A stretch of DNA of 63,109 bases, counting the filler, from Globobulimina sp. (lineage: Eukaryota): assembly GCA_003354225.1 (NCBI GenBank). It is 27 parts of 27 records of this genome, joined end to end, with 100 filler letters (N's around TTAATTAATTAA, not from the genome) between each part and the next. Parts side by side here need not be neighbours in the genome. Positions count along the whole stretch, not along the records: positions 60,870 to 63,109 come from PIVH01007962.1; 26 more parts are not named here. One strand, given 5' to 3'. Below are positions 1,492 through 63,109 of this stretch, one piece after another (positions within the stretch are counted from its first letter, which is position 1; the number at the start of each line of letters is the position of its first letter). The translations under genes and the position numbers were made by a program. The notes beneath the pieces were generated by a model. The model was given only the letters and a program-made list of their open reading frames with translations. It was not told where the DNA came from and ran no database searches.

Positions 1492-2242
1492 ATCCTTTTA
1501 TCTGTATAATAATCATTTTAAATTATATAATACACGATTTTCAAAGGAGAGAAAAAAAAAAGGTGCCAGTTGACAACAAACAAACGAACGAACACAAAAA
1601 CGCGTTCCCCAAATATATGCATTGAGAAATGCAAAATAATAATTAAAAGAAAAAAAACAAATAGCTATACATACATCAATTATCATACATTAATGTTTAT
1701 AACATTTATATTAATTTTATAATATTTTGCTAGAAATATCGAGAAAAAAACAAAGAAACAGAAAAAAATAAATTGCCCAAACAAAAATCGAATGAAAAGT
1801 CACAGAAAAGGATTCACAAAAAACTATACATTGTAGCAATAATCATATTCAATTCAATAACAATAATAACAACAACAAAAACACAAAAATAAAGAAATAA
1901 GACACCAACTCACCGATTCTGTGAAGACAACAACAATAAAAAAATAATAATAAAATAAACAATGCGTTGTTTTACAAAAAAATGTCAGTTGTAAATTGTT
2001 ATCCTGACACTGAATACTTTTAATATTTAACTTTCAGAAAAAAGAAGAGCAGAAATGAGATATTTCAACATAAAAAATAAAAAACACAAAAAAAAAACTC
2101 AAATTACAAAATAAATAGGAAAAAAGAAGAATGCTTGGAATCATTTGTTACATCGACTGTTAATACGAGAGTGAGAAAAAAAAGAGGCTGAATAAAAATA
2201 TGTGACATAGAAAAACCAACAAAAAACCACAAAAAAAGCTAA

Positions 2243-4584: not shown

Positions 4585-4918
4585 NNNNNNNNNNNNNNNN
4601 NNNNNNNNNNNNNNNNNNNNNNNNNNNNTTAATTAATTAANNNNNNNNNNNNNNNNNNNNNNNNNNNNNNNNNNNNNNNNNNNNCCAGGTCTGGAAAATG
4701 AACCTTTATGATCAGAATTACCTTTTTGTTGTAAAACAATTAACACATGTGGCAGAGCAACCATATCATTCCATGCTACTTGTGTGCACAAGCGACATTT
4801 TATAGCAAGTTTACTAATCCAATTATATAGCCTGCAGCATTTGCAATTAGTTAACATAGAGACAAATGTGAAGCTTCAATTTACCAAATCCATCCCAAAT
4901 TTCTTGTTTCTTGATTCA

Positions 4919-5095
4919 TTTTCCTTCGCTTTGAACAACTTTCATTTTAACATCTACATCAATATTTCCGACGTTCCATCCTTTGTTATTCGCATACATT
5001 TTGATAGTAATGGCAGTGCAAGAAGCCAAAGCTGATAGTAAATATTGCGGAGGGTTTGGGTGATTGTCGCCACCACCAACAGATTCTGGTTCATC
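4919..5095 (-). CDS. Bacterial OsmC/YhfA-family fragment (chimeric insert)
   Basis: [40 protein letters not shown] is the OsmC-family signature; both ends are missing. Confidence 0.8.
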
Positions 5096-6926
5096 GACGA
5101 ATTGCGGGAGATCTATTACCGGCGGTACCAACTCCGGAACTGTGCGTTCGAGCTGTTTTTCAGCGATGACACTTCGTGGCTGTTTAATCTGTACGATGAG
5201 CAGAAACGGGACCGCATCTTCAATGCCATCATGACGCTGTCGCCGAGCAACTTGATTGAGAGCAAGGAGTTTTTCAAGAACCCCAAGAAGGCGATCAAGA
5301 GCTCACAAATCCATTATAAATGGTGCCGGCGCGAGATCACTAATTTCGAGTACTTGATGCGATTGAATGTGTTGGCCGGCCGCACCTTCAACGACTTGAC
5401 GCAGTATCCGGTGGTTCCGTGGGTCATCGCGGACTTTGAGTCGCCGACAATCGACACCAACGACCCTAAGATATACAGGGATTTGAGGTAAAATATGTGT
5501 ATATGATCGACTTTGCATATTTACCATACATACATTGCGTAAATACTGTAGCAAACCGATAGGCGCATTGAACGAAGCGCGACTGAACAAATTCAAAGAT
5601 CGCTATCAATCGCTATGTGAGGATCGCGACATCAACAAAGCCAACAACAGCAATTCGGAGCAAGTGGACCATTGCTTTATGTACGGCACTCATTACAGCA
5701 GCATCGGCATTGTCTTGTACTATTTGTTGCGAATGCAGCCGTTCACAGCGTACAACTTGAAATTCCAAGGCGGCAAATTCGATCACGCCGACCGACTGTT
5801 CCATAGCGTGAGGGATTCGTATCAGGGCTGTATGTTGAATATGGCCGACGTCAAAGAGCTGATTCCGGAGTTTTATTACTTGACTGACTTCCTATGGAAC
5901 AAACAGAGCTTGAATTTGGGCGTCAAACAGGAGAATGGCGACAAAGTGGATGACGTGAAATTGCCGCCGTGGGCCGATGGCAAACCGGAGCGGTTCGTGC
6001 AAATTATGCGGGAAGCTCTGGAGTCGGAGCATGTGTCCTCGCATTTGCATCTATGGATCGATCTGATATTTGGATGCAAGCAACGCGGCAAAGAGGCGGA
6101 ATTAGCGAACAATATCTTTCATCCGCACACGTATTCGGGCAATGTGGCCATTGACGAGATTGCGGACGATACGCAGCGGCGGGCCATATTGGCGCAGATC
6201 GACGAGTTTGGCCAGACTCCGATGCAATTATTCAGCAAAAAGCATCAGAAACGGCTCAAGAACACAGAGGTTTTGACCACGATCTTCCAGGCAAAGTCCG
6301 TGAAGTATTACAGTAAGCAGCATTTGACGGATTCGTCGGACGTTGGCATCATCTCAATGTCGTGGAATACGTGCGATAAACAGGTGATTGTCATTGGCAG
6401 CGATTGCTGTTTAGGTACGAGATATATTTGTGTGTTATGTATAAAATATGATATAAATTAATTGTGCAGATATTCATAAATGGGAACAAAACAAGTTATC
6501 CATCGAAAAGAAGTCCAAATCGTCGATTGCCTCTAAAATCGTCAAATTCGGCAAATCGAAGAAAAGCAACAAGATCTGCAGCAGCGGAGCTTCCTTTTCC
6601 TCGTCGATCCGACACAAAAATTTGTGTTTTGCCACCACTCGCGACGGGCAATATATATTTGGTTGCGGCTTCGAGGACAATTCCTTCGTTGTTTGGGACA
6701 CTTTGCATAACAAAATCTATCAAAACATCAAGAAGCACAGCGACATCGTCTCCTGTTTGGCTTTGGACGAAGACCTCGAAAAACAAAAAGCGATTTTGGT
6801 CACCGGCTCGTACGATAAGTCCGTGATGGTTTGGCGCATCAACCTCAACGCCAAACAAACGAAAGCGTCCAAGACCAAGAATAAGAAAAACAAATCGCAT
6901 TCGCGCAAGCATTCCTTGCCGCATTC
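5087..6926 (+). CDS. PH-BEACH-WD40 protein (neurobeachin/LRBA-like), partial; introns about 5488-5550 and 6415-6469
   Basis: [10 protein letters not shown] motif; [64 protein letters not shown]40 repeats downstream. Confidence 0.95.
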
Positions 6927-7026: not shown

Positions 7027-8669
7027 TTCAATGAACCAAAAAATGTTAAATCAATACCAAGAACACTTGCTAAAAACTTAGTTAATCCAGATTTACCTGT
7101 TCCGTTAATCTTTTAGTAAAATATTAATATAATTTGATTAACCTTTGCTGGATTTTGAATGATATCTGCGAAATATTGTATAAAGTAATCAAATGCTTTT
7201 TCATCATCTTCACATATATTTTTAAGTATATGGTTTAATAAGAATTGTAAATCTTCCATTTTTTCTTCTGGAATATTTTCTTTTTCAAAGAAGTTTAATA
7301 TACGATCATAATTAAAACCTTTAAAAAGATTATAATGTCCTGTTTCTGTATTTTTAGCATCTACAGAATGAGGTAAGAATTGAATATTGTAATATGCGGT
7401 TTTCTTACTATCTCTTAAATAATCTTTAATGAAGTTTTTTTTATCATCTTTACCATTTTCATCTCTTTCCATGTAATATAAATCATTTTGATAACCTTCT
7501 ATCTTAATTGGTTTTAAATCTCTCTCGTAAACTTTATATTTACTATCCCAAATATAATCTAATCTATAAAATGAGTTAGTATCCCTAATGAATATAATAA
7601 AGTTTTCAAAGTATTGTCTTACAGTATAGTAATTACTTTTAGAATCTTTATCAATTGGGATATTATTTAAATATTCTACTTCAAAGTTACGTGTTGGTGC
7701 TTTTGGTTTATAAACAACCTTTTCAAAGTCTTTGCATTTATCAGAATGGCATTTAATTTTTAAAGTATTATTATATTTATTATGAATTAAGTAATTATTA
7801 TTGTTATTGTGTTCATGTCCACAATAATATTCTTCTAAGTCATAAAATGTGCAACCTTCATAATCACCTTCAGTTTTCACACTTTCTGATTTAGTATTAT
7901 AACCTTTAATAATTGCTGCGATTTCATCTGTTGTATCTAATGCTTTTTGAACAAAATCAGCTCCAACTTTTTCTCTTTTATTATCAACTTGATTAGTTAC
8001 TACTAATACAATTTCTTCACAATCAGCGATGTTTGTAACAAGATGTTTATGAAAATTAGTTTTATCTTTAAAATTAATAGGTGTTAATAATGAACCAAAA
8101 TCTTGTTGGTTTTTTTTAGTCATAGGACAACGAAATTTATTAAATCCATCTCTATAAATTGAAGTATCTAATCCAACTGATAAATTTGTAGCTTCAAATC
8201 TATACATTTGTTCAGCGATAAATTGTCTTAATAATGAAATTTTTACTTTTTTATTCCATAAAACAAAATGGAATGATATTTTCATACATTTTTCTTTTTT
8301 CTTACTATTTTCAAAAGCATGTTCAGTTGGTCTACAATCTTTACTAATAGCCCAGTTACAAGGGCAATCAAATGTATCTGATAAAAGTTCAAGTAACTTT
8401 TCTTGTATGATTACTTCTAATTCTGTTGAATAATCACTCATTCTTACATATTCTTCGTAATCAATATGTGGTTTTATCATAGTTAAGTTTGCGTTATATA
8501 ATTCAAAACAAGTTAATCCTCTTTTACCTCTTATTGAATAATTGTTTTTTAATTCGTCATAAAGTTTATCATAAGTCATTCTTTGCTCCTTTGATGTTTG
8601 TAATGTAAAACATACTGGAATTACAGTATTTAGATGATTAATTGCTTCTTTGGGAGTTTCGTTGGTCAT
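7027..8669 (-). CDS. Virus-type AEP primase / Zn-ribbon / SF3 (D5-like) helicase fusion with in-frame TAA at 7113-7115; 3' partial
   Basis: KISFH and LDTSIY...FR (AEP motifs), CGHEH...CHSDKC Zn ribbon, YNLFKGF...FDYFIQYFADIIQNP, then after the stop KINGTGKS (Walker A) in the same frame; intronless and very AT-rich. Confidence 0.8.
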
Positions 8670-8782
8670 TTTAAATAAAATATATAATATGTTTATATAT
8701 AAAATAAATTTTAAATTATTTTTTTAAATTGTTAAATAGATAACAAATTAAAAAAGTATAATATAAGATTCTGAAATACCGA

Positions 8783-9268
8783 TTAAAATATATTCATCAT
8801 GTTTTCATCAAGTATTACATCCAATTCATTTATGTTTTTACTTAATTTCACATTTAGTTTTTGGTATTTATTAAACTCTACTTTTGAGTTATTATTTATA
8901 TTTCTAATTATAATCTTATCGTCTGTTACTTCTTGTTTTAACATTGATAATAATTTATTATTGAATAATTGCTTTCTATATAAATGCTTTAATTCTGGAA
9001 TAAAAATACTAATTTTATTGGATTTTATATCAACAATATAACTTTCATATTCGTCATTTCTTAATTTGTTATTAATAATATTGATTTTCTCCAACTCTCT
9101 ATACATTTTCTTGTCTTTCTTTTGTTGAATATTAACTTTTTCAATATCAACTTTTAATTTCTTTAATATTTTACTATCTTTATTAGTTAATACTTCTTTT
9201 ACTTGTAAATGTATCATAATATCTACTATTCTACGAATTGGTGAAGTAAAATGTGAGTAATATTTTAA
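8783..9268 (-). CDS. RNase II/R (RNB domain) C-terminal part, giant-virus-like
   Basis: YYSHFTSPIRRIVDIMIH is the RNB motif IV, followed by an S1-like tail; intronless, Lys/Asn-rich. Confidence 0.85.
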   Translation of the reverse strand, partial: LKYYSHFTSPIRRIVDIMIHLQVKEVLTNKDSKILKKLKVDIEKVNIQQKKDKKMYRELEKINIINNKLRNDEYESYIVDIKSNKISIFIPELKHLYRKQLFNNKLLSMLKQEVTDDKIIIRNINNNSKVEFNKYQKLNVKLSKNINELDVILDENMMNIF

Positions 9269-11710: not shown

Positions 11711-13952
11711 GCTTGCCCTTGGGCGTCATTGGCGGGGTTCCAATCCGCATCGAACATTATCAGCCGATTGGCGCCGATCAGATTCAGACCACAGCCACCC
11801 GCGCGATTACTCAATAACAGCACCAGATATTTGCTGTTGGCGTCATTGAACTCGTCCACGATGGGCTGCCTTTTTTTGGTCGGAATGCTGCCGTCTAACC
11901 GCTTATAATCAATACAGCATTTCTGCAAAATCAGTGCCAAAATGTCTAAGGTTTCCGTGAAGACCGAGACGATTACGGTTTTATCGCCGGTGGATTGGTC
12001 GCGTAATTGGGAGAGCAATGAGAGAGTGAACGCCATTTTGGAGGAATGTTGCGCCGAAATGTATCGATCCAGAAAGTCCGATGGGTACAAATGGAACAAT
12101 CCTTTCAATTCGGTGCGGATTCTATTTCCATCGCGGTCGTATTCGCTCGAAGTGCTATGGATGACATTGGCCTTTTTTTTCTTTTTTTTCTTGCTTTTTT
12201 TGGACGCCGATGATATCAATCTCCATTTACTTTTATTGATTTTGATCTTTTCGATCTTGGCGCATTGCTCGTAAATCAGTGCGGGATGATTGCAGATTTT
12301 ACTTAGAAAGCAATTACATAACGGAATGGAATTGATATCGTTTCTGAATATAATATAAATACCTCAACACTGCGACGGCTAAGAAGCCAATGGCAGACAA
12401 TCCCGAACCACTCGACGCCGCATCCTTGGCTTGTTTGGCGATTTTAGACTTTAAAAAGGTTTGATACAACTCTTGTTGGAACGCGCTCAACTTACAAAAC
12501 ACGACATATTCCGACTTCTTTGGCAGATATTTCATCACAACTTTGCTAGTCCGCTGCAATAAGAATTTGTTAAGTATACTCCGCACCGAATTCAGTGCTT
12601 GCTCTCCTTTCTGGTTCACTTTCTTACTCGCACTGCTATCGAAGGAGCGTACAATGCGGCAGGCATCGCTCGAAAAGTCCTTCACCGAGGACCAGACGCC
12701 GGGGTTCACGAAGTTGACCAACGAGTACATCTCCTTCAGGTCGTTCTGGATCGGCGTGCCAGATAACAACATGCGTTTTTTCGACTTGATGCGCGACACA
12801 GCGACGGACAATTGCGATTTATAGTTTTTTAGTTTGTGGCCTTCGTCGCAGACAACGAAGCCAATCTCGTTTTTGATTTTGTTTTTCTTGCCGTTTTTGT
12901 AACAGATGGTTTCATGGTAACTCCGATACGATTCGTAGCTTATAATTAGTACTGGTTTAATGGCGCCGCAATTGGCCGAGCGAATGACAGAGAGCCAGTT
13001 TTTTATGACGTCTTTGGTTTTGCTTAAACAGGGGTACGGTTTCATGGTTTTGCCGGTCTTGCCTAACCATTTAGTGATCTCTAACTCCCAATTGGCCACC
13101 AATGAGGCGGGCGATATTACGATCCCGTTGGAGCAGGTTTGTTCGCCGGCAAATACGTCCTGTTCCATTAGTGTCCACATCACGGTGATGGCTTGCAAGG
13201 TCTTCCCCAGACCCATGCCATCCGCTATATATTATATTCCGCAGTTTCAGCAACTCAGCATGTCAGCTTGCAAGGTGACATTGTAAAAAATGACAAAAAA
13301 ACTTTTGACTCAAGTGGTTGGGATCATTTTCACCGCTGAGCTCCTCGCACATATATAACCAGAAAAACTTAACCTAAAATGCAACCTTCGCCATATTCAT
13401 TGTTGGGCGCATATTTCTTGTCCATCATGCATCGATATACAAATTCCACACCAACCACCTGATGGTGTCGCAGTTTGCAACCTAAGCGAGGATCCACCAC
13501 TATGGGTACTTTGATTTTGTGTTTGTTGCCTTTCTTTTTCTTTGATTTGGTGGCCAATGCATTCTTTACTTTGCTGCTGATCTTAAATTGTTGCACTTCT
13601 CCCTCTGAACCACTGTCCTCTTCTTCATCTTTCATGTCTTCATCTTTTACGTCGTCGTCACTCTCATCATCAGAATCGGATAACTCCTCCGGTCGCCACA
13701 ATACAATGGCACCGTCATCCTCCGGATCATGCTTTGGCAGCGTCGTTTTTTCTTTGCGAAAGCCCAAACAGCCCAAGGCTTTGCCATACGCACTGTACAA
13801 ATCAGCGACATATGCGCGTAGATTCCTTTTTGCTGCTTCGTGATCCACGATTTTGGGTGGCACAAATTTAAATTTTTTACCTTTGCCTTTACGTCCAAAA
13901 ATCATCTCTTTTTTTGGTTCATTGTTGTCGTTTTTTGCGTTGTTTTTTGTTG
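11711..13952 (-). CDS. RAD54: SNF2-family DNA translocase RAD54/RAD54B, partial; introns about 13374-13225 and 12362-12302
   Basis: LRHHQVVGV, GCILADGMGLGKTLQ, CDEGHKLKN, LSGTPIQNDL, ICNHPAL, GGCGLNLIGANRL, DADWNPAND. Confidence 0.92.
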
Positions 13953-30442: not shown

Positions 30443-31327
30443 TTACTGTGTCTGGTCAACTTGCTGTGATCACTGGTGCAGGCGATGGAATTGGTAAAGC
30501 AATGGCAACTAAATTAGGTTTCAAAAGGTTGTAATTTAGCATTGGTAGACATCAGGAAAGAGAACGTTGATGATGTAGCCACCAATATACAAATATAAAA
30601 GTATATACGTACCAATGTTCGGAAAAACAAATCTTCATTCAATACAAAAACAATTCAATTATTATTTAACAATGTGATGGTACTCTGCTAAGACGTGAAT
30701 TTGATATAAATTTATGGAGTGTGGTATGTGGAACGCGTTTATTTTTGCCAATGTTATTAGCAAATTAAATGATGTGAAACTGCAATGTTATATAATTAAT
30801 ACAGGCTCCATAGCTTCCATTGGAAGTGGCTACAATTGGTATTCTGTGAGGTTTGTTGCACATTTGGTTGGATTTGACATTTTGTGATGTGTTTTTACAA
30901 TGACTACAGTAAACACGCTGTGATTGCGTTCTCTGAGACAGTGAGAGAGGAATTAAAAAGATTTCATCCCACACATAGCATATTGGTAAGTACATTAGTT
31001 CCCGCATTCGTTAATAAGCAAATTGGGACATAGCAAAGAATTGGATAAAATTGTTAAAGCATGGGAGAAAACAGAGAAGGACTAATGACAGAATTGACTG
31101 CTATTAAAGTTGTTTATGAAGCGTTAAGAAATAAAAAAGAAGTGATTCCAACGCATTTAGAGTGGCATGAAGCTGTTATTAAAGATAGAATGAGTGCGTT
31201 GTTGAATTGTGAAAAGGATAAAAAAAGTAATATGAGGAAAGCTGTACGAAAGGGAATAGCAAAGGCTAAACAATCAAAATTATATAACAATTTTATTCCT
31301 TGCACTTCAGTTGAAATTTATTTCTGA
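30443..31327 (+). pseudogene. Short-chain dehydrogenase/reductase pseudogene
   Basis: AVITGAGDGIGKA, GCNLALVD, INLWSVVCGTRLFLPML and KHAVIAFSETVREEL are spread over several frames with stops. Confidence 0.75.
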
Positions 31328-31471
31328 AACGTTTCTGACATTTAATTAATTATCAGAAACGCGTTGCTGCCTGGATTTAATTATCGATCTCAAAATAGTA
31401 TTTTATATAACAAAAGAAAAATGAACAATGTTGCACTTCTATATATTTATTCATTATGTATTATGTACTGT

Positions 31472-32683
31472 TTATTGTGGTGTTATCATATCTTTAACAA
31501 CATCATTATCACTGTCATAATCCTCCACGTTATCACTATCACTGTCATTATCATTATCTGGTTCTTTATAAACATCAAAACTATCAAATTTAATCTGATG
31601 TCCATTATGTTGTTTCTCTGTCTCACTTTCTTCAATACAATAACGTGTCACACCACTTTCCTCATTATCCATATCCATATCCATCAATTGTACGTAAGGT
31701 GTCCCATTATAATCTTGTACAGCTGTATCCTTTTTACATTCACGTCGAAATATCATCAAAAAACACACTAAAATCACTGCACATAATGATGCAATTGTAA
31801 TCGATACAAAAACAACTATTTCTTGGTGAGCCAACACTTTCGCCGATGCAGGGAATTTAGTTGGAGATATTGTTGGGTTAAATGTTGGTGGTTTTGACGG
31901 TGATGATGGACTATATGTTGGTGACTCCGATGGAGATACGGTTGGGGAATATGTTGGTGCTGTTGATGGAGAATACGTAGGTGATTTAGTTGGAAACACG
32001 GTTGGATTATTTGTTGGTGCTGCCAACGGAGAATAAGTAGGTGATTCCGATGGAGATATTGTTGGGTAATATGTTGGTGCTTTTGATGGAGAAAAAGTAG
32101 GTGATTCGGATGGAGATATTGTTGGATTATTTGTTGGTGCTGCCGACGGAGAAAAGGTAGGGGATTCCGATGGAGATATTGTTGGGTCATATGTTGGTGC
32201 TTTTGATGGCTTGTAAGTAGGTGATTTGGTTGGAGCTATTATTGGACTGTTTGTTGGTGATGCTGATGGAGAATAAGTAGGTGATTTCGAGGGGTTATCT
32301 GTAGGTGATTCAGAAGGGGAATTTGTTGGAGCTGGAGATGGTGATGTTGATGGATTATAAGTCGGGGATTTGGAGGGAGATTTTGTTGGGTTATGAGTTG
32401 GGGGTGGAGTTGGTGGAGGTGTTGGATGTGGGGTTGGAGAGCTATATAAATTTATATGCAGAATGTCCGAACACGTAATATATTGTACATAGCATACGAT
32501 GTTGGAGAGGCAGTGGTTGGTGAGGTAGTTGGCGTTTTGCTTGGATATCGTGTTGGTCCTAAAGTGGGATTACTGAAAATATTTCAAATATGTACGTGTG
32601 TTGTGTTACTTGTGTTAAGTGTAAGATATACATTATTCACACCGTGTTGGATTGGAACTGTATCGTGCTGGACATTCTGAACC
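31472..32683 (-). CDS. PT-repeat (PTxxP, mucin-like stalk) single-pass surface protein, 5' partial
   Basis: Tandem SPT/PT repeats with about 60-bp periodicity, [26 protein letters not shown], acidic tail. Confidence 0.75.
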
Positions 32684-35124: not shown

Positions 35125-37365
35125 ATCCGATCATTTTTATTATATATACCAAGCAATTATTTATTTGAATTATCATTAGGTCTTAATACAGGCCATGACA
35201 ATGAGGATGATGATGGGATGAAAAAAAAGAAAAAAAAATCAAAGAAAAACAGACATAAACATAACGACGAAAATGATGGATTATATCCAATTTGTAAGGT
35301 ATTGAAATGTATATGGTTGGGAGCGTTAAATATATCTCATTTAAGTAAAAGATTTAAAGCTGTGACAATTATATATTTTAAATTAATATTACAAATGTTA
35401 TTACGTGATAATAATGCAAAATGTGATGATAATGAATATATACATGATAAGGATAAGGATATGATTAATATAAATAAGTTATGTAAAGATATGATCATTA
35501 AAGAAAATGTGATTAATTTAATATGTAAAAGTTTGAAAGAGTTGGATTGTCCATCATTATTTTTTGAGTTATTGGGTGAACATTTCCTGCCAAAAATTGT
35601 GGAATATGATGACGAATTATTAAGGGATTATGCACATGATATGCCACACGATGAAATGGATAAAATTGTTGCAAAAATGGAAGTAATTCGACAGAGTGAG
35701 TATTATAATAATATTATTGTCGAGACAGTAAATTGTATATTTTCTTCAATACAAAGTGAATTTATTGAACCATTTGGCGATTTAATGACATTGGTGATGG
35801 ACGAAAATGTAACAGATGATGATGAACAACAAGAGATTGCTGATAAGACTGACGATTTTGTATCTGATTATAATACCGGATTAAATAAGTTATCATCATT
35901 TGTTCTTCATTTAAAACCATTTATTTGCATTGAAAATATATTATATCAAGCTAATGATGCGAAGGCGGATGAGGATGATGACAGTGATGATAATATTACA
36001 TATTGGAATAGGCGGACTTCTGTGAAATTGTGTTTATATGAATTAATGAATGAGATATGGAATTTTCAATCAAATATTGAATTAATTGTTGATATGACAG
36101 ACCCACAAATAATAATAGCACAAGATGAGAATAATAATGATAATGATAATAATAATAATAATATGATTGATAGTGATTCAGAAATTGAAGATGATGACGT
36201 TGAATATGATGATGATATAAAAATTGATTTTAATAAATTATTTGTTTCAAATCCGAATGCAATGAGTTATTCCGTATGTAATACATCCTTAAAAATAGTT
36301 AAAAATATGATTGAGATTTTAAGTATTGATTTTGGGCAAATGTCCTCAAATAAATTTAAGTTAGATTTATTTTTAAATAACGAAATTACTCAAACTATAC
36401 AATATATATTATCTACATTGCAAAGTAAAATACCAATGCAATATTCATCTGGAATCATGCAAATATTGCTTCAAATTATAAATTTAATATTAAATCAAGA
36501 TAAAAATCCAATGCAATATAAATATGACACAACAAAACATTGGAAATCATTTTTACAATCTGTTGCCATGGCCAATTATGACTGGTCACTCAAAAATATG
36601 TCATTGTTTATCGACAATATCTTCTTTGAAAATATTGAATCAAATAATAAAGAATATGGATTAGAATCATTTTTAATTGATTGGTTATCTCAATATTTAA
36701 ATAGTAACTTACCAAATGTATCCAATACTATTCCCGCTGAAGCATATACATCGTTAATTATATCATTACAAAAACTATTAAGTCAAGCTAACAATACCTA
36801 TTTATTACCGATTTTAAAATTAATTTGTAATTATTTAGATAAAGCCATAGAAATTGGCAACAATCCCGAAAATAAAGTATCATATCCAGGCATTACAAAA
36901 AATAAAACGCATTGCATTATCAGGAGTTTAAGCCGATTTTTAGAACAAAACTGGAGGAATAATACTGATGAAAATAAAATGGATGAAAATAAAGAATTAG
37001 AATATAATAAATTATCCGAATATCAGTTATTAATTGTCTCAAAATTATTTACTTTGTGCTTTGCTCGCAACGATAGAGACGATCCACAAAATATTGCTAC
37101 AATTTGCGAGTATATGTTTAAAAAAATTATAAGATATCATACTACTGATTTAGATGGTGAATTGTTAGAAGTTATCGCAAAATCTCTACGTTTACCTTTT
37201 TATTTTACAACAAATCCAATGAATACAAATAAGGATATACCAAAATATTATTATCCATCATTTATTAAACAAGAAATACCGATTATTATCAATAGATATA
37301 ATCCATCCCGATGGAGATGGTGTGTTCAATGTTTATTATTGTTACAATCAACAACATTTCAACAT
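35125..37365 (+). CDS. Large alpha-helical hypothetical protein, internal fragment
   Basis: Open frame of more than 700 aa with acidic D/N tracts; no recognised motif. Confidence 0.6.
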
Positions 37366-46829: not shown

Positions 46830-48993
46830 CCGATATTTATAACTTTGTACAAGTCCTGTAACTCGTGTTCTAAATATGATCTCTGGTCGTCTCAACGGAT
46901 AATCTGGATCATATTTGGATCATAACAGTATATTTATGGATTCAATGGACTGGTTGATTTGGTACATTATCCATTTCTTTAATATATCATCTTATCAGGC
47001 AAGAATACTAAATAACAAGAATATGTAACCAAGCTGAAAACCTTGTTCAGTTTGTATTGACTATTGATTGAGCAGGAAAGCTCTTAGTATGTTGTTCCTG
47101 ATGTATTAAACTATTCCAATTATCCTTGCACTTCAATGACTTCATACCTATTTATTCAGAGCAAAAAAAGTTGCAGCAATTCAGAGCAAAAATTGGATTA
47201 AAACAAGAGAATTATAAACAACTTCCTTGCAACAAGTTTATAGTATAATTGTTTCTTTTTCTTTCTTTTTCTATTGTACAAATTGTGAGTTATCCCACCA
47301 CCTTTAATCCAAATCATTTTCCCAATTCCTTTCTCAATTTAATTCCAATTAATTTTCTCAATCCATTTATTTCTCCAAATTCATGTTCTCAATTTATTTC
47401 TAATTAATTCATTTATTTGACTAGGTTTGTCGGGGTCGCCTCAGGCTTTGAACCTGAATCTTCTGGATATATCTATCCAGTGCTCTACTTGAGCTAGGCG
47501 ATAGTTTTAAAATCATCCATAAATCGTATTTTATAAATAATAGATGCGTTGAATCTAAAATTGTTAGTCGCCGTGCTTTCGCCTTTATTGTCCATTGCGT
47601 TTTATTTCTAGCTATTACAAACATTAATGAAATGGAATTTGCTTAAAATTGGCAAACAGACTAATTAGCACATCAGGAACAACATACTAAGAGCTTTCCT
47701 GCTCAATCAATAAAAAATTGCGACAACTATCACAAAAATTGTCGACCAATTAAATAAAAATGAAAAATAAAGAATAAAACACGACAATGATAAATAAAAA
47801 TAAAACCTAATATCCACCACACTTCTACAGCATCGTTACGAACGGTTCGTACTTTTCGCCGGGTCTAAATTTTAATAATTCTTTTTTCTCCCAATCTCTT
47901 CACCAGCTTTCGAATGATTTTCTTGGTAATTTGAAATCTAATAAATTTGTATTCAATTCTTCTTTGTTTTCATCCAATAATTTCGAAATATCTTCTAAGT
48001 TTTCCATCTAACTAAGAAGTTTTCACTAAGAAAATTTTTCAAGAAAGTTTTCACTAAGAAGTTTTTCAAAAACCATAAGTTGGGCATTTTTAGTTTTGAT
48101 TTTGAGAAATAAATACAGTGAAGTAAGCTTAAAATGTCGTTTTTTCGTAGCGTTTAGTTTTCTATCTACTAAAATGTTTTCTCAAAAGGATCGAGTTATA
48201 TATGAGTTTGTAACAAAGACTTTTAATAAATAAATATATATATACCAGTCTTTACATTTATATATGAATGTCAAGAGATGCTACGGTTGCACCTGGTGCT
48301 GTTCTATGATCGATGTCTTCCGAGACGGAGGCGGTCCTTGTGTAATGCTATAATCAGCAACCTGTATGGTGTTCCTAGCGTTAATCATTTGGTTTCAAAC
48401 ATAAATATTACATAACATTCATACACCAAGTATACGGAGAAATATTATTGAAACCGCTGAATCAACTGTTTTTTGTTTTTAAATGTATTTTTTTTGGTTA
48501 TTATGCAACAAATTTGGAAATAACTAGTGTGAATTAATTTGGAAATAACATTTTTAGATATATTGTTAAGTTTGCCGATATTTATAACTTTGTACAAGTC
48601 CTGTAACTCGTGTTCTAAATATGATCTCTGGTCCTCTCAACGGATAATCTGGATCATATTTGGATCATAACAGTATATTTATGGATTCAATGGACTGGTT
48701 GATTTGGTACATTATCCATTTCTTTAATATATCATCTTATCAGGAACACCACTGTAGAAAAATGTTATGACAAGGCTAGAAAAAATTTATTACCTAAAAG
48801 ACTGTGTAGTGTGAATTAGTTGAAACTTGATTTATTAATTTCACTGAGCTTTCTGCTGTCTTAAAGAAGCTATTGTCAAAGTGTTTAATTGAAGACTGTA
48901 AAAACTACAAACAATCAAAACAACACACAACAAAAAGAAAACAAACACACGTAAAAAATTGCGACAACTATCACAAAAATTGTCGACCAATTA
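46830..48993. repeat. Split direct repeats: A (170 bp; 46830-46999 and 48575-48744) and B (42 bp; 47711-47752 and 48952-48993)
   Basis: A copies differ at one position that I can see; B copies are identical. Confidence 0.9.
47062..47712. mobile_element. 651-bp element bounded by perfect 43-bp inverted repeats (MITE-like or amplification inversion)
   Basis: 47062-47104 is the exact reverse complement of 47670-47712; both ends are TA. Confidence 0.65.
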
Positions 48994-49386
48994 TTACATT
49001 TTCAGTTTTTATAACAACAAGTTGTACGAAATTTCATATACAATTCTAAATATAACTTTTTTGTTTGAANNNNNNNNNNNNNNNNNNNNNNNNNNNNNNN
49101 NNNNNNNNNNNNNTTAATTAATTAANNNNNNNNNNNNNNNNNNNNNNNNNNNNNNNNNNNNNNNNNNNNCAGTTGATTATAAAGCCAATTTGTCTCTCAT
49201 TGACGTCGGGCGTATATAAGATAACACAGTGAGTGGTAGTTTATAAGATTTATTTGAAATAAATGATATTTTACAAAATTACAAACCAATATTAGATACA
49301 AAAAATACGAAGGTTGACTGGTTGAGAAACAAAAAAAGAGAGAGGAGAAACAAAAAGAGAGAGAAACAACAATAAAAATACTTAGA

Positions 49387-53749: not shown

Positions 53750-53996
53750 NNNNNNNNNNNNNNNNNNNNNNNNNNNNNNNNNNNNNNNNNNNNTTAATTA
53801 ATTAANNNNNNNNNNNNNNNNNNNNNNNNNNNNNNNNNNNNNNNNNNNNGACAGTTGAAAAACAAAAACTTTTTAGAACAATAAATGTCAATATCGATAT
53901 TTATTAACAGCAGCTAACAATTACTTATATATGACATATAAATTGAAATTCAAACATAACAAATTGAAAAGCACCACAGACAAAAACAAAAGAAAA

Positions 53997-55164
53997 TCAT
54001 TCAGCCATTAAATAATTCGGACTAGTTTTAGCAATCTGAATCTCCTCTTCATTCATATCATCTTTTATGTCATTGAACAGCGGCGTAGTCATATACCTCT
54101 CCATCGTATCCGGCAACATCGCCAACACTCCACAATGATCGCTTGCATTTTCGCAGATTTGCAAGGCAGCGGCAACCGTGGCACCGCCCGATACGCCGGT
54201 AAATATCCCTTCGTATCTGGCCAAATCCAGAGCGACTCTCATCGCCTCCTCGCCCGATACCTGTACAATTTCATCGGCAATGCCCGCATCAACGCCATCC
54301 TGCGTTATTTTGGGGATGAAATTGGGTGTCCAGCCTTGAATTGGATGCGGCGTAAAAGAGGGGTGCCCCTTCGCGGGCGCATGCGTTTTGGCATCGCGTT
54401 CTTGTCCGACCCCGCTCGACACCAACGGTGCATTGCTAGGCTCCGCTAATATGATCTTAAGAGACGGTCTCGCTGTTTTTAGCACTTTGCCCGCACCAAA
54501 AAAGGTACCGCCAGTCCCATAGCCAGTGACCCAATAATCCAAATTCCGGCCGGTGAACGAGCTCAATATCTCCGGACCGGTCGTATTTGCGTGGTATTGC
54601 GGATTGGCTTCGTTTTCGAACTGCCGCGCCAAAAACCACCCGTTGGCCTCGGCCAATTCTTCCGCTTTCTTCACCATTCCAACTCCGCCATCTTTTGCCG
54701 GCGTTAAAATCACTTTGGCGCCCAACGCGCGCATTATTTTGCGGCGTTCGACGGAGAACGTCTCGGCCATCGTGGCAACGAACGGGTATCCTTTGCGGTG
54801 TTTATATGAATGTAGGATGTGGATCGGCTGTTTGTTGTATACCTTTTTGAGCACAAACCATTGCCAATGCGATGCCCGTGTTGCCAGAGGTCGCTTCGAT
54901 TACAGTTTGGTTCCGTTTTAACGTGCCACGTTTTTCCGCATCTTCGATGATTCCGATCGCTAAACGGTCTTTCACCGATGATAAGGGATTGAAAAACTCA
55001 CATTTCACATATAAATCTACGTTCTTGTTCGCTGTTAATTTGTTGATTTTCACTATTGGCGTGTTTCCAATTGTTTCGAGGATGTTGTTGTAAATTCTAT
55101 GTCTACGGACACTGTGCCTGAATAAGCTGGGTCTAAATAGGCTGTGTCTTAGTAGCTTGGCCAT
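53997..55164 (-). CDS. cysK: Cysteine synthase (O-acetylserine thiol-lyase) with mitochondrial presequence; intron 54842-54791
   Basis: TIGNTP, KCEFFNPLSSVKDR, EATSGNTG, QFENEANP, GYGTGGT, PHPIQG, PDTMERY. Confidence 0.95.
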
Positions 55165-55575
55165 GGTTTGACAGAGTGGTTTTTTTGAAAGTGTGTGAAA
55201 TTGCAGCTTGCTATGTTGGATAGCTATGTTGGCTTTTTTCAACAAGCAAAGGTTGGAAAAAAAAGCAAAGATTAAAAATAAAATTTAATTTTAAACAAAA
55301 ATAAAGGCGAAAGAAATGACTTCGAAATCACACAATAGATTATGATCAGGATAAAAACAATCAAATCAATGGTCCTGAATCTAATAAACCATCACTGTCT
55401 TCACCATCTAAATCAATGGTTATACATCCATCAAAATCGATGGTTATACATCCATTATAATTCATATTGTTTTTAGCGGAGAAGTTCTGATTTGAATATT
55501 CAACATCTGTGTTTTGTATATTTTATGTATTGTTTTTGTATTCAAAATATCATAATTTGCTCACATATATACATA

Positions 55576-56089
55576 TTACACACTGCTATTTGGATTCAAA
55601 TAAATCTCACCATTGATATCATTAATCAAAAGTGAGGCTTTTAAGACTGAGTTGTGATAATTGCTGGATTCCATAACATTGTTCTCTACATTTTTACGTG
55701 GCCTCCAATAGCAACCAACTATGACTATACACACAAACAACATGACACAAAATGGAATGACAAACAATACTGTGTCGTTATAATTGATTGATGCACTGTT
55801 TGTATGCGATGAATGCACTCCCAAATGGTTGTTCTCTTCAATATATCTCGGTACTGAGTTTGTCATCGTAGCATTTATTTTATGTATCGAATCAACCTCA
55901 TCTTCAACAGAGAGTGACATGGCATAAGCACTTGCAGCAAGCAATGAAGTTTTTGCAGAGGATAAATGCAGTCATTGTGCTGATTATAGTATTGATGGTG
56001 ATAATGATCATTGAGAAGTATTCATTTGTTAATCAAAGCTATGAAGAAAACACTGATGTCACCACAACGATGCATATGAACGAAGACAA
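55576..56089 (-). CDS. Hypothetical membrane protein fragment
   Basis: TM VLFVIPFCVMLFVCIVIVGCYW followed by RPRK. Confidence 0.4.
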
Positions 56090-60769: not shown

Positions 60770-60869
60770 NNNNNNNNNNNNNNNNNNNNNNNNNNNNNNN
60801 NNNNNNNNNNNNNTTAATTAATTAANNNNNNNNNNNNNNNNNNNNNNNNNNNNNNNNNNNNNNNNNNNN

Positions 60870-61271
60870 CGCTTGTTCTTGTATGAGTTTCTTAAAGTTC
60901 TTTAGCGTGGTTCCACTCTTCAATCCTCTTTGAGGTCGGGCGTACACGTATCCAGAAAACGGATCGAGACACACCAACACTTTGGGCAATTTGGAATGTC
61001 TGAACACAGCCGTATCGCAGGCCAGGTCCAAATAGGGCGCCGTCAAAACGTATTTGCTGAATTTGTTCGCCTTTCCTCTCGGTTTTCGTGGTCGTCGATG
61101 TATCAAGTAATTGGCTTGTTCTTCCAGGAATGTCTTGACTTCCTTCTTGGTCAAATCGGGGGACGATTTCTTGGCGGTAACGTATAGGGTGTCCAAACCG
61201 GAAAAGGAGGCGGGGCTTCGGAGCGAGTAATAGATTTTTTCTAACAAGGCGCGTTTATCGGCTGACAGCAT
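60870..61271 (-). CDS. Maverick/Polinton (adintovirus-type) retroviral-like integrase, N-terminal part
   Basis: LEKIYY...PASFSGLDTLY...LTKKEVKTFLEEQANYLIHR...LACDT...LVCLDPFSGYVYARP is the Polinton integrase N-terminus with the first catalytic Asp. Confidence 0.9.
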
Positions 61272-61324
61272 ATCGACGGACCGACCGTTTAGACGGTTAT
61301 TGTCGTATGTAACTTGTTGTCAAC

Positions 61325-61773
61325 ATGTCGGCTTCGAAGGTTAAGCGATATTTGGGCTTGATCACGGGTATGGTCTTGTTGAATAAGAAACAGAAACGGT
61401 CCCTCATCGAAAACGCCAATTGCGGATTTCTCAAAGCCCTATTGAGGTAATACAATGACGGTCTAGGCCAAATTTCTCGAAACGACTATGTTTTAGTCTG
61501 GCCGCTTCGGTTCAGGACGGATTTTTGTCCGTCAACGATCTGAAAGTCAAGAAACGTCTTATGAGACACAGAAAAAAGATCAACCGATTGAGGGACGGTC
61601 CCAAAGACAAACTATCGGAAGACCTATGCAACAACATCGGTTTCCTGGATGCCTTGGCCGAATCGGTGGCCTATTTGAACTCTGACGAAGAAGACAGACT
61701 GCCCAAATATTTTTCTAAGCAAAAACAAAAGAGAAAGCAAAGTAATTTATTATCAGCAAAATCGGTTTCCTAA
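61325..61773 (+). CDS. Polinton/adintovirus conserved small protein ('GasderminX'/PW-like), spliced (intron 61447-61496)
   Basis: Spliced product KQKRSLIENANCGFLKALLSLAASVQDGFL...KKRLMRHRKKINRL...NNIGFLDALA matches the family pattern; it sits next to the integrase. Confidence 0.65.
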
Positions 61774-61783
61774 CATCGATCGA

Positions 61784-62073
61784 TCAATCATCGGCTTCTC
61801 CATGTCGGTGAATAAGGGCCACTTCTATGGAATGCTTAGGTTTTTGATTGGCTCTCGGCGGGGACGTTCCATGTTGAGGGTACTTTTGAATATGGAGCTT
61901 GTTGTGTTCCATGGCGCGTTCGGAAGCCACCACGTCCAATTGAACCTCTTCGTCTCGTTCCCCAAACTTTACGCAAACCTAAATTAATTTAATTAATTAC
62001 AAAAAAATTTAATTATCTATCCCACTTTGACGTTGGATCCGTCGAATCGCCAGTCGTCGTTCCAGGCTGCCAT
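61784..62073 (-). CDS. Small spliced ORF (80 aa; intron 62025-61979), unknown function
   Basis: MAAWNDDWRFDGSNVK/VCVKFGERDEE...; removing a 47-nt AT-rich GT-AG intron restores the frame exactly. Confidence 0.55.
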
Positions 62074-62224
62074 TTTTCTAACAATGACAAAAATTTCCCC
62101 AGGCTCCGCCTCCAGACGGAACGTCTAGACGGTCACGTGACCTATTTCGAAATTGGGAGTTTTTTATATAACTTTTTTATCGATTGCATACAAATTGTTG
62201 AATACATTAATTGGTTGAATCACG

Positions 62225-62476
62225 TTAATCGACTATTTTTAAATTGACAATTTCTATGGTTTCCGTAAGAACGTTTTCTTCGCTCAAATCCTTGATTCTT
62301 TTCACGATCAATCGGTTTCCTTCCATAGGGTCATAAAATGGGCTGGAAATTGTCACGGTAACCTCTTCTGTTGTGGCCACGACTTGCATCTAACATAGGG
62401 CACAAAATTATTAATTTATCACTTTCGACATTTCTTTACCTACCATATACTCTTTCTTTTCTACACGAGCGGACAT
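62225..62476 (-). CDS. Small, probably spliced ORF (second exon 62389-62225)
   Basis: MQVVATTEEVTVTISSPFYDPMEGNRLIVKRIKDLSEE... is preceded by a TTAG acceptor; the donor is ambiguous. Confidence 0.4.
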
Positions 62477-62673
62477 GACCAATATCTTTTTTAGAAATGA
62501 TCAAGGATAAGCCGCAGAAGCGCGATGTTAACTGGCAAACCGAAGACACCCTATCTCTCTGGCAAACCGAAGACAACCTATCGGCTACGGCGAAGAATGA
62601 CGATTAATTCGTTACCCTATTTTGACATAATATTATTTTGTAGAATAAACAGATAGACCAATATGTGTTATGC

Positions 62674-62757
62674 GCAGGGGTGGCCGAGTGGTTAAGGCGA
62701 TGGAGTTAAGATCCATTTCTCAATCGAGAGTCGTGGGTTCGATTCCCGCTCCCTGTA
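62674..62757 (+). tRNA. tRNA-Leu(TAA)
   Basis: Acceptor GCAGGGG/TCCCTGT, TGGCCGAGTGG D-arm, ATGGA-GTTAAGA-TCCAT anticodon arm, long variable arm, GGTTCGATTCC, downstream T-run. Confidence 0.9.
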
Positions 62758-62785
62758 AAGATTTTTACTGTGCCAAAAGTCGGAA

Positions 62786-62869
62786 GCATGGATGGCCGAG
62801 CGGTTAAGGTGATGATTTCAAGCGTCATTGTTCCATCGAACATCGTGGGTTCGAATCCCACTCCATGCA
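62786..62869 (+). tRNA. tRNA-Leu(CAA)
   Basis: Acceptor GCATGGA/TCCATGC, ATGAT-TTCAAGC-GTCAT anticodon arm, long variable arm, GGTTCGAATCC, T7 terminator. Confidence 0.92.
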
Positions 62870-62970
62870 ATTTTTTTGGCAAGACAAATCGCTCGGTCTA
62901 CAGGAGTTTAGATTCGCGCTTCCCATAAATTTTCAGTACAAAGACCGAGATTGCTACTTTCGATATCCGT

Positions 62971-63044
62971 AGTTCTGTAGCACTACCGGTAGTGCATCGG
63001 ACCTAGTGCGTTCGAGGAAGTGAGTTCGATTCTCACCGGAACTA
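62971..63044 (+). tRNA. Atypical tRNA, anticodon AGT (nominally Thr), with an extended anticodon arm
   Basis: AGTTCTG/CGGAACT acceptor, GCAC/GTGC D-stem, TCGGAC-CTAGTGC-GTTCGA, GTGAG-TTCGATT-CTCAC, TTTT terminator. Confidence 0.75.
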
Positions 63045-63109
63045 TTTTGCTTTTAATATTCTCGCTTATTTCCGGCTTTTCGGCCGTCCGTCGCCTTCGG
63101 CTACTCCCG

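Follow-up and report, generated by a model that had tools for sequence, protein, structure and literature searches.

The window analysed here is a 63,109-base stretch of DNA from a Globobulimina sp. assembly (GCA_003354225.1), a pseudo-molecule made of 27 unlinked, length-sorted contigs of 2,240–2,242 bp. Its last contig (PIVH01007962.1, positions 60870–63109, 2,240 bp) contains four protein-coding genes followed by three tRNA genes (Table 1), and the evidence for a mobile element spans 1.6 kb of it. The protein-coding genes are the N-terminal part of a Maverick/Polinton-type integrase (leftward), a small protein (rightward), and two further genes, A and B (both leftward); all four are open and their splice sites are intact. 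The true left end of the contig is marked by an artificial spacer, so sequence to the left of 60870 is unlinked to it, and any finding that crosses a spacer is an artefact because the contigs of the window were joined artificially. The right end of the contig is reached 64 bp past the third tRNA. A Pfam scan of seven open reading frame (ORF) translations from the contig returned no family at E ≤ 1. No long inverted repeat was found on the contig, where the longest has 29-nt arms with 72% complementarity, and at most one end of an element is present.

Table 1. Features of the last contig of the window and of the spacer that precedes it.
Feature	Position	Strand	Description
Artificial spacer	60770–60869		N44, 12-base six-frame stop block, N44; 26 identical spacers in the window
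Maverick/Polinton-type integrase, N-terminal 134 codons	60870–61271	−	ATG at 61271–61269; cut by the contig end
Divergent intergenic region, 53 bp, between integrase and small protein	61272–61324		Holds TAGACGGT at 61290–61297
Clade-specific small protein, ~132 aa	61325–61773	+	Exons 61325–61446 and 61497–61773; GT..AG intron 61447–61496, 50 nt; frame kept across the intron
Gene A, ~80 aa	61784–62073	−	Exons 62073–62026 and 61978–61784; intron 62025–61979, 47 nt
Second TAGACGGT and palindrome	62126–62142		TAGACGGT at 62126–62133 overlaps the 12-bp perfect palindrome GGTCACGTGACC at 62131–62142; upstream of gene A
Gene B, ~65 aa	62225–62476	−	Exons 62476–62444 and 62389–62225; intron 62443–62390, 54 nt
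Tandem repeat, two copies of a 24-nt unit	62532–62582		Period 27, copies 96% alike; 56–106 bp upstream of the gene B ATG
tRNA-Leu(UAA)	62674–62757	+	53.4 bits; long variable arm, discriminator A; T5 at 62762–62766
tRNA-Leu(CAA)	62786–62869	+	54.6 bits; no intron; T7 at 62871–62877
Atypical Thr(AGU)-like tRNA	62970–63045 (ARAGORN); 62971–63044 as annotated here	+	47.6 bits; T4 at 63045–63048

The integrase fragment shares 72%, 60% and 57% identity with three proteins of 318–381 aa (P0001, P0002 and P0003, among 446 candidates). It includes the first conserved acidic residue of the rve core, in the CD[TS]A block, and not the later TD.G block; of the three catalytic positions it has just the first. 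P0002 and P0003 match rve (E 1e-3 and 2e-4) and Chromo (E 0.037 and 0.019), all below the Pfam cut-offs. The ESM Atlas neighbours of P0003 are rve+Chromo clusters labelled Preplasmiviricota (scores 0.98), and one cluster is named after the 'F54H12.3 transposon-derived protein family'. In tblastn searches, the fragment itself matched the integrase ORFs of L002, L005, L006, L007 and L011 (E 4e-8 to 6e-14), which belong to a set of ten Maverick loci (L002–L011) described below, and P0001 and P0003 matched the integrase ORF in six of these ten (E 1e-14 to 1e-30). Patterns from the integrase alignment (A1) gave 594 metagenome, 369 viral and 267 genome-collection matches, none of which was confirmed. 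Judged by its homologs, the integrase is a member of the Maverick/Polinton family; an earlier note, made from the sequence alone, had named it a Polinton-type integrase, and both the tblastn matches and the ESM Atlas neighbours bear this out. It is the one gene on the contig that is among those defining the family.

The small protein and genes A and B are all interrupted by a GT..AG intron of 47–54 nt that preserves the reading frame. For the small protein, P0004 (E 1.2e-19) was the sole match in 1.84 billion representatives, and a profile search gave two protein matches, P0004 and P0125. One metagenome contig, L001 (positions 45–278), also encodes a relative. L001 carries small protein, gene A and gene B in the order seen here; strands and intron positions match, and the identities are 54%, 55% and 29%, respectively. 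Gene A corresponds to L001:364–576 on the minus strand (55% over 55 aa, E 6e-23) and gene B to L001:1038–1346 on the minus strand (29% over 48 aa, E 1e-8), with its intron at the matching place. None of the three has a detectable homolog in L002–L011 (best E 0.065), and a Pfam scan of six L001 ORFs gave chance-level matches only. Genes A and B are assigned to the element because L001 keeps their order, strands and intron positions, and by this comparison the small protein, A and B are real genes of a clade-specific element module. The tightly packed tiny ORFs of the earlier note are thus genes, in the same order in L001. What it had called a conserved Polinton small protein is likewise a real spliced gene, but its relatives are limited to P0004, P0125 and L001, and none is found in the ten other loci.

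The next gene on L001, 193 bp from the gene B ATG, encodes an 84-aa, two-helix membrane protein (1540–1791, plus strand), here called TM. The TM family (~80 aa) has 133 homologs at 41–90% identity, a near-invariant motif LWTALLSS..GY[IL]LPNP and no Pfam family; its nearest ESM Atlas clusters are all viral (score 0.96). Alignments of the small protein and of TM brought up no relative among viral contigs. The ten loci L002–L011 were gathered through a scan with the TM protein. TM directly follows the integrase on the same strand in six of them, and a conserved ORF directly follows TM in seven (21/21 pairs homologous). The shared order is PolB, two ORFs, a pre-integrase ORF, integrase, TM, and ORFs of 280, 150 and 480 aa. 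The upstream gene in L009 (L009:3–4229) encodes a protein-primed PolB (PF03175, E 2.9e-9), a gene of a relative and not of the contig studied here; nine other locus ORFs scanned alongside it matched no family. The ORF of ~480 aa is present in six loci (15/15 pairs homologous). Foldseek gave it 82 matches at E ≤ 0.001, almost all of them double-jelly-roll capsid proteins of adomaviruses, adintoviruses, virophages and giant viruses, with TM-scores of 0.28–0.43 from a poor model (pLDDT 49.6) that is too weak to rely on alone; this ORF of the relatives is, with low confidence, capsid-like. Since TM lies after the integrase (6/10) and before a conserved ORF (7/10), it is internal to the Maverick, and it appears to be a core Maverick gene with an integrase-adjacent place, previously unannotated. 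Therefore, the L001 element continues past gene B, where TM follows.

All ten contigs (L002–L011) are assigned to bacterial genome bins, several of which belong to symbionts of marine invertebrates. A binning error is the most likely reason, the DNA being that of eukaryote hosts.

Taken together, the contig is best explained as a piece of an integrated Maverick/Polinton-type element from a divergent, poorly sampled clade. It resembles Mavericks/Polintons (polintoviruses, adintoviruses) in having an rve-type integrase that stands alone and that, in the full-length relatives, ends in a chromo-like tail; in the homology of this integrase to those of loci with protein-primed PolB and a capsid-like ORF; in its compact array of small ORFs; and in its spliced genes, which are consistent with a nuclear, integrated life. 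It differs in that an integrase fragment is all it carries of the family genes. In the ten other loci, TM comes directly after the integrase on one strand and no tRNA genes were seen, whereas the present clade has an inverted integrase, separated from TM by three small genes that are specific to the clade. The clade therefore has a rearranged integrase neighbourhood, a result that stands wherever the tRNA genes are placed.

ARAGORN identified exactly three tRNA genes in the window, all on the plus strand of the last contig, and the Rfam covariance model RF00005 (gathering score 29) agrees, as does the earlier reading of three tandem same-strand genes (Leu-TAA, Leu-CAA and an atypical AGT), each with a T-run. 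The T-runs lie within 5, 2 and 1 nt of the first, second and third tRNA. tRNA-Leu(UAA) is of the eukaryote cytosolic type. By eye, the first and second tRNAs fit the A-box and B-box consensus, and the third fits it less well. The third tRNA is also odd in having an A1-U72 acceptor end and either a 9-nt anticodon loop or a 6-bp stem.

Public reads containing part of the contig come from one study, as three runs of one sample, with no RNA run listed; one of these runs, X1, was used as Logan contigs. X1 contigs diverge from the third-tRNA unit at 62968/62969 into unlike 5′ sequence, and one 528-nt piece is alike from 62965 to 63096, beyond the end of the tRNA. Instead of a functional Thr tRNA, the unit may represent a dispersed repeat derived from a tRNA, such as a short interspersed element; the T4 immediately after it argues for a plain gene. 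At least three other X1 copies of the unit differ from the copy on the contig by the same two changes, G>A at 63016 and at 63038, and their 5′ flanks are unlike.

The first tRNA begins 197 bp from the gene B ATG, and this stretch holds the presumed promoter repeats, which leaves less than 90 bp for any terminus. Because TM follows gene B at the corresponding position in L001, we infer that the tRNAs are probably internal. Synteny with this one relative of ~50% identity favours tRNAs carried by the element over tRNAs in a host flank. In addition, by our own uncomputed estimate, a breakpoint within a 200-bp interval beside a tRNA cluster should be much rarer than the carriage of tRNAs. The composition is continuous as well, with a GC content of 0.37–0.45 on either side of the gene/tRNA junction and a single dip to 0.29 at 62145–62294, within the gene block, so that the absence of a compositional break described earlier holds. 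On balance, captured cargo inside the Maverick element is the reading of the three tRNAs that we favour, at about even odds.

If they are, host nuclear tRNA genes would have been captured into the intergenic region between gene B and TM. With their internal RNA polymerase III (Pol III) promoters and T-run terminators, they would be transcribed by host Pol III at any integration site, independently of the RNA polymerase II genes of the element. The weakest step of this model is the role of the tRNAs, which would most likely be neutral passengers or provide a modest boost in Leu decoders, TTG being the commonest Leu codon of the element.

Several observations weigh against an internal placement. 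Element genes flank the tRNAs on the left only, the contig stopping soon after the third, so that the earlier proposal of an element with its own tRNAs gains from the L001 synteny and is left one-sided by the contig itself. The scan of related Maverick loci that had been suggested as a check went the other way, with tRNA genes in 0 of 11 loci (77,044 bases), and a permissive Rfam scan of L001 gave no tRNA remnant. Beyond gene B, the contig and L001 do not align, either as DNA or translated, and the link from B to TM depends on a single relative. Each of the three tRNAs has copies in X1 with unlike flanks, as expected for multicopy host tRNA genes, and the third behaves as a dispersed repeat. 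Finally, codon use shows no evident need of the element for these tRNAs (see below).

Some of these observations are what would be expected if the element ended, or were truncated, just to the right of gene B and the tRNAs were ordinary host nuclear genes, which we regard as possible and rather unlikely. Besides their absence from all 11 related loci and the different flanks of their other copies in X1, the tRNAs resemble ordinary cytosolic tRNA genes of eukaryotes and have their own terminators. Leu-UAA and Leu-CAA should also rank among the most numerous tRNA genes of the host, because their Leu codons dominate every long window ORF sampled, and the 27-bp tandem repeat upstream of gene B could be subterminal. 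Such a host flank, however, requires a truncation within 197 bp that spared gene B and its upstream region, whereas L001 runs on into TM; every visible gene is intact, and the junction shows no break in GC.

An assembly chimera, in which a Maverick fragment was misjoined to a tRNA locus or the assembler walked through tRNA repeats, is improbable. It would suit the small size of the contig (2,240 bp), one of thousands of pieces like it in the assembly, a window in which the contigs have two very different codon compositions, and tRNAs that are themselves repeats, with X1 pieces leaving each tRNA into unlike sequence. A misjoin at repeats could scramble the order of the tRNAs, yet the element must still abut the first of them, and no repeat in 62477–62673 recurs elsewhere in the window. 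X1 pieces, some near-identical and others more diverged, match 60870–61068 and 61322–62499. Cover in X1 is nil over 61095–61319 and 62520–62594 and almost nil over 62595–62669, which makes it uninformative for the gene-B/tRNA junction, and the summed X1 depths over the tRNAs take in other organisms and are unusable as copy number.

Some retrotransposons and integrase-bearing elements target tRNA genes, and the integrase could likewise have inserted the element beside host tRNA genes; the chromo-like C-terminus of the integrase relatives could serve as a tether to chromatin. We regard this as very improbable. It would make gene B terminal, which is contradicted by L001, and no tRNA is found within the available sequence of the 11 related loci. 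Furthermore, the insertion sites of polinton-like viruses (PLVs) in cryptophytes are described as having no tRNA within 1 kb (PMC12220804).

The earlier note had suggested that the tRNAs could supplement TTA/TTG decoding or counter host defences aimed at tRNAs. In the 386 codons of the protein genes of the contig, the 46 Leu codons comprise 4 TTA, 21 TTG, 3 CTT, 6 CTC, 5 CTA and 7 CTG, and the 16 Thr codons comprise 0 ACT, 6 ACC, 4 ACA and 6 ACG. The TTG share of the element (21/46) matches the one seen in the GC-richer window contigs (35/76); AT-rich contigs use mostly TTA. Codon compensation is unlikely because TTG is no more frequent than in those GC-richer contigs, TTA makes up just 4 of the 46 Leu codons, and none of the 16 Thr codons is ACT. 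Compensation for TTA, TTG or ACT was accordingly rejected, with no decoder shortage visible in this 386-codon sample, and the suggested supplementation is not supported.

The remaining candidate roles are those of a neutral passenger, a boost in Leu tRNA dosage, a Pol III chromatin barrier and a counter-defence against tRNA nucleases. It is doubtful in our view that an intact Maverick lineage with protein-primed PolB (pPolB) and rve maintains these three Pol III tRNA genes as an internal tandem cassette that serves some end unrelated to codon matching. One candidate purpose would be to replenish long-arm (type II) Leu tRNAs cut by Schlafen-type nucleases in antiviral responses; another would be to set up a Pol III chromatin barrier against silencing of the integrated element. 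SLFN11 is described as a codon-dependent antiviral endoribonuclease in PMC11615386, where the terms 'type II tRNAs' and 'tRNA-Leu-TAA' occur.

Among PLVs and virophages, a few percent have been documented to carry tRNA genes: one survey reports 558 tRNAs, including a tRNA-Leu, in 8,300 PLV/virophage genomes and discusses codon compensation and host tRNA depletion (PMC12220804). In light of these numbers, a claim that this realm of viruses has no known tRNAs is outdated. Predicted tRNA genes are also marked on the maps of mid-size linear dsDNA (MELD) viruses, as stated in a figure legend (PMC8502044). Within the listings and passages that the literature searches covered, tRNA cargo was not reported for pPolB/rve Mavericks. 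The contig is similar to PLVs, virophages and MELD viruses as a small eukaryotic DNA virus-like element with tRNA genes. Those known systems are mostly from protists (PLVs and virophages) or have other replicases (MELD viruses), and they usually carry single tRNAs, whereas the contig has a tandem trio of Pol III units next to an integrase of the pPolB Maverick lineage, with a proposed internal placement. It shares with the tRNA clusters of giant viruses and phages the tandem, same-strand arrangement of tRNA genes in a mobile or viral genome. Unlike those clusters, each tRNA here has its own Pol III terminator and a host-nuclear appearance, and the element shows no codon mismatch to the likely host contigs.

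If the tRNAs are internal, tRNA carriage would extend from the PLVs and virophages of protists to the Maverick lineage proper, with an unusual set of two leucine isoacceptors and an odd Thr-like tRNA, and the reasons for which nuclear DNA elements carry Pol III genes could be studied in a small and tractable system. If they lie in a host flank, the contig is an ordinary truncated transposon fragment. Regardless of their placement, the analysis yields TM, a highly conserved two-helix membrane protein beside the Maverick integrase, and a divergent clade.

The noncoding parts of the contig contain several shared motifs. TAGACGGT and a 12-mer occur in the 5′ region of the integrase and again in that of gene A, both with an offset of 836/837 bp. 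The palindrome GGTCACGTGACC has a core, CACGTGACC, that recurs upstream of the homologous gene A in L001 (803–812), and palindrome and core constitute a candidate promoter element shared by the clade. The tandem repeat upstream of gene B is likely its promoter or a subterminal repeat. A motif GGCAA..GACAA..ATCG occurs both upstream of gene B and just past the second tRNA (2 occurrences against 0.03 expected, for a pattern set post hoc), a recurrence that amounts to a hint only. The RAGACRR motif is found in L001 at chance-level frequency.

The other contigs of the window are eukaryotic and encode BEACH, C2, ion-channel/EF-hand and thioredoxin-fold proteins; none of the 26 has a Maverick-related match by tblastn. 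Their long ORFs separate into two classes of codon use. In the first (contigs 7027–9268 and 35125–37365), these ORFs are TTA-rich with a third-position GC content (GC3) of 0.13–0.36; in the second (4685–6926, 11711–13952 and 53850–56089), they are TTG-rich with a GC3 of ~0.6. The Maverick contig has a GC3 of 0.53, like the second class. Given this split in codon composition, the assembly is probably a mixture, either of two or more eukaryotes or of genome compartments that differ strongly.

Two further contigs of the window are rich in repeats. Contig 46830–49069 has no ORF of ≥100 aa and contains a 170-bp direct repeat with copies 99.4% alike (local positions 1–170 and 1746–1915) as well as exact repeats of 42–43 bp, and resembles the ends of repeat elements. 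Contig 30443–32683 contains internal tandem repeats, offset by ~129 bp and 80% alike across 319 bp, plus additional shifted copies, in the stretch occupied by a 365-aa ORF.

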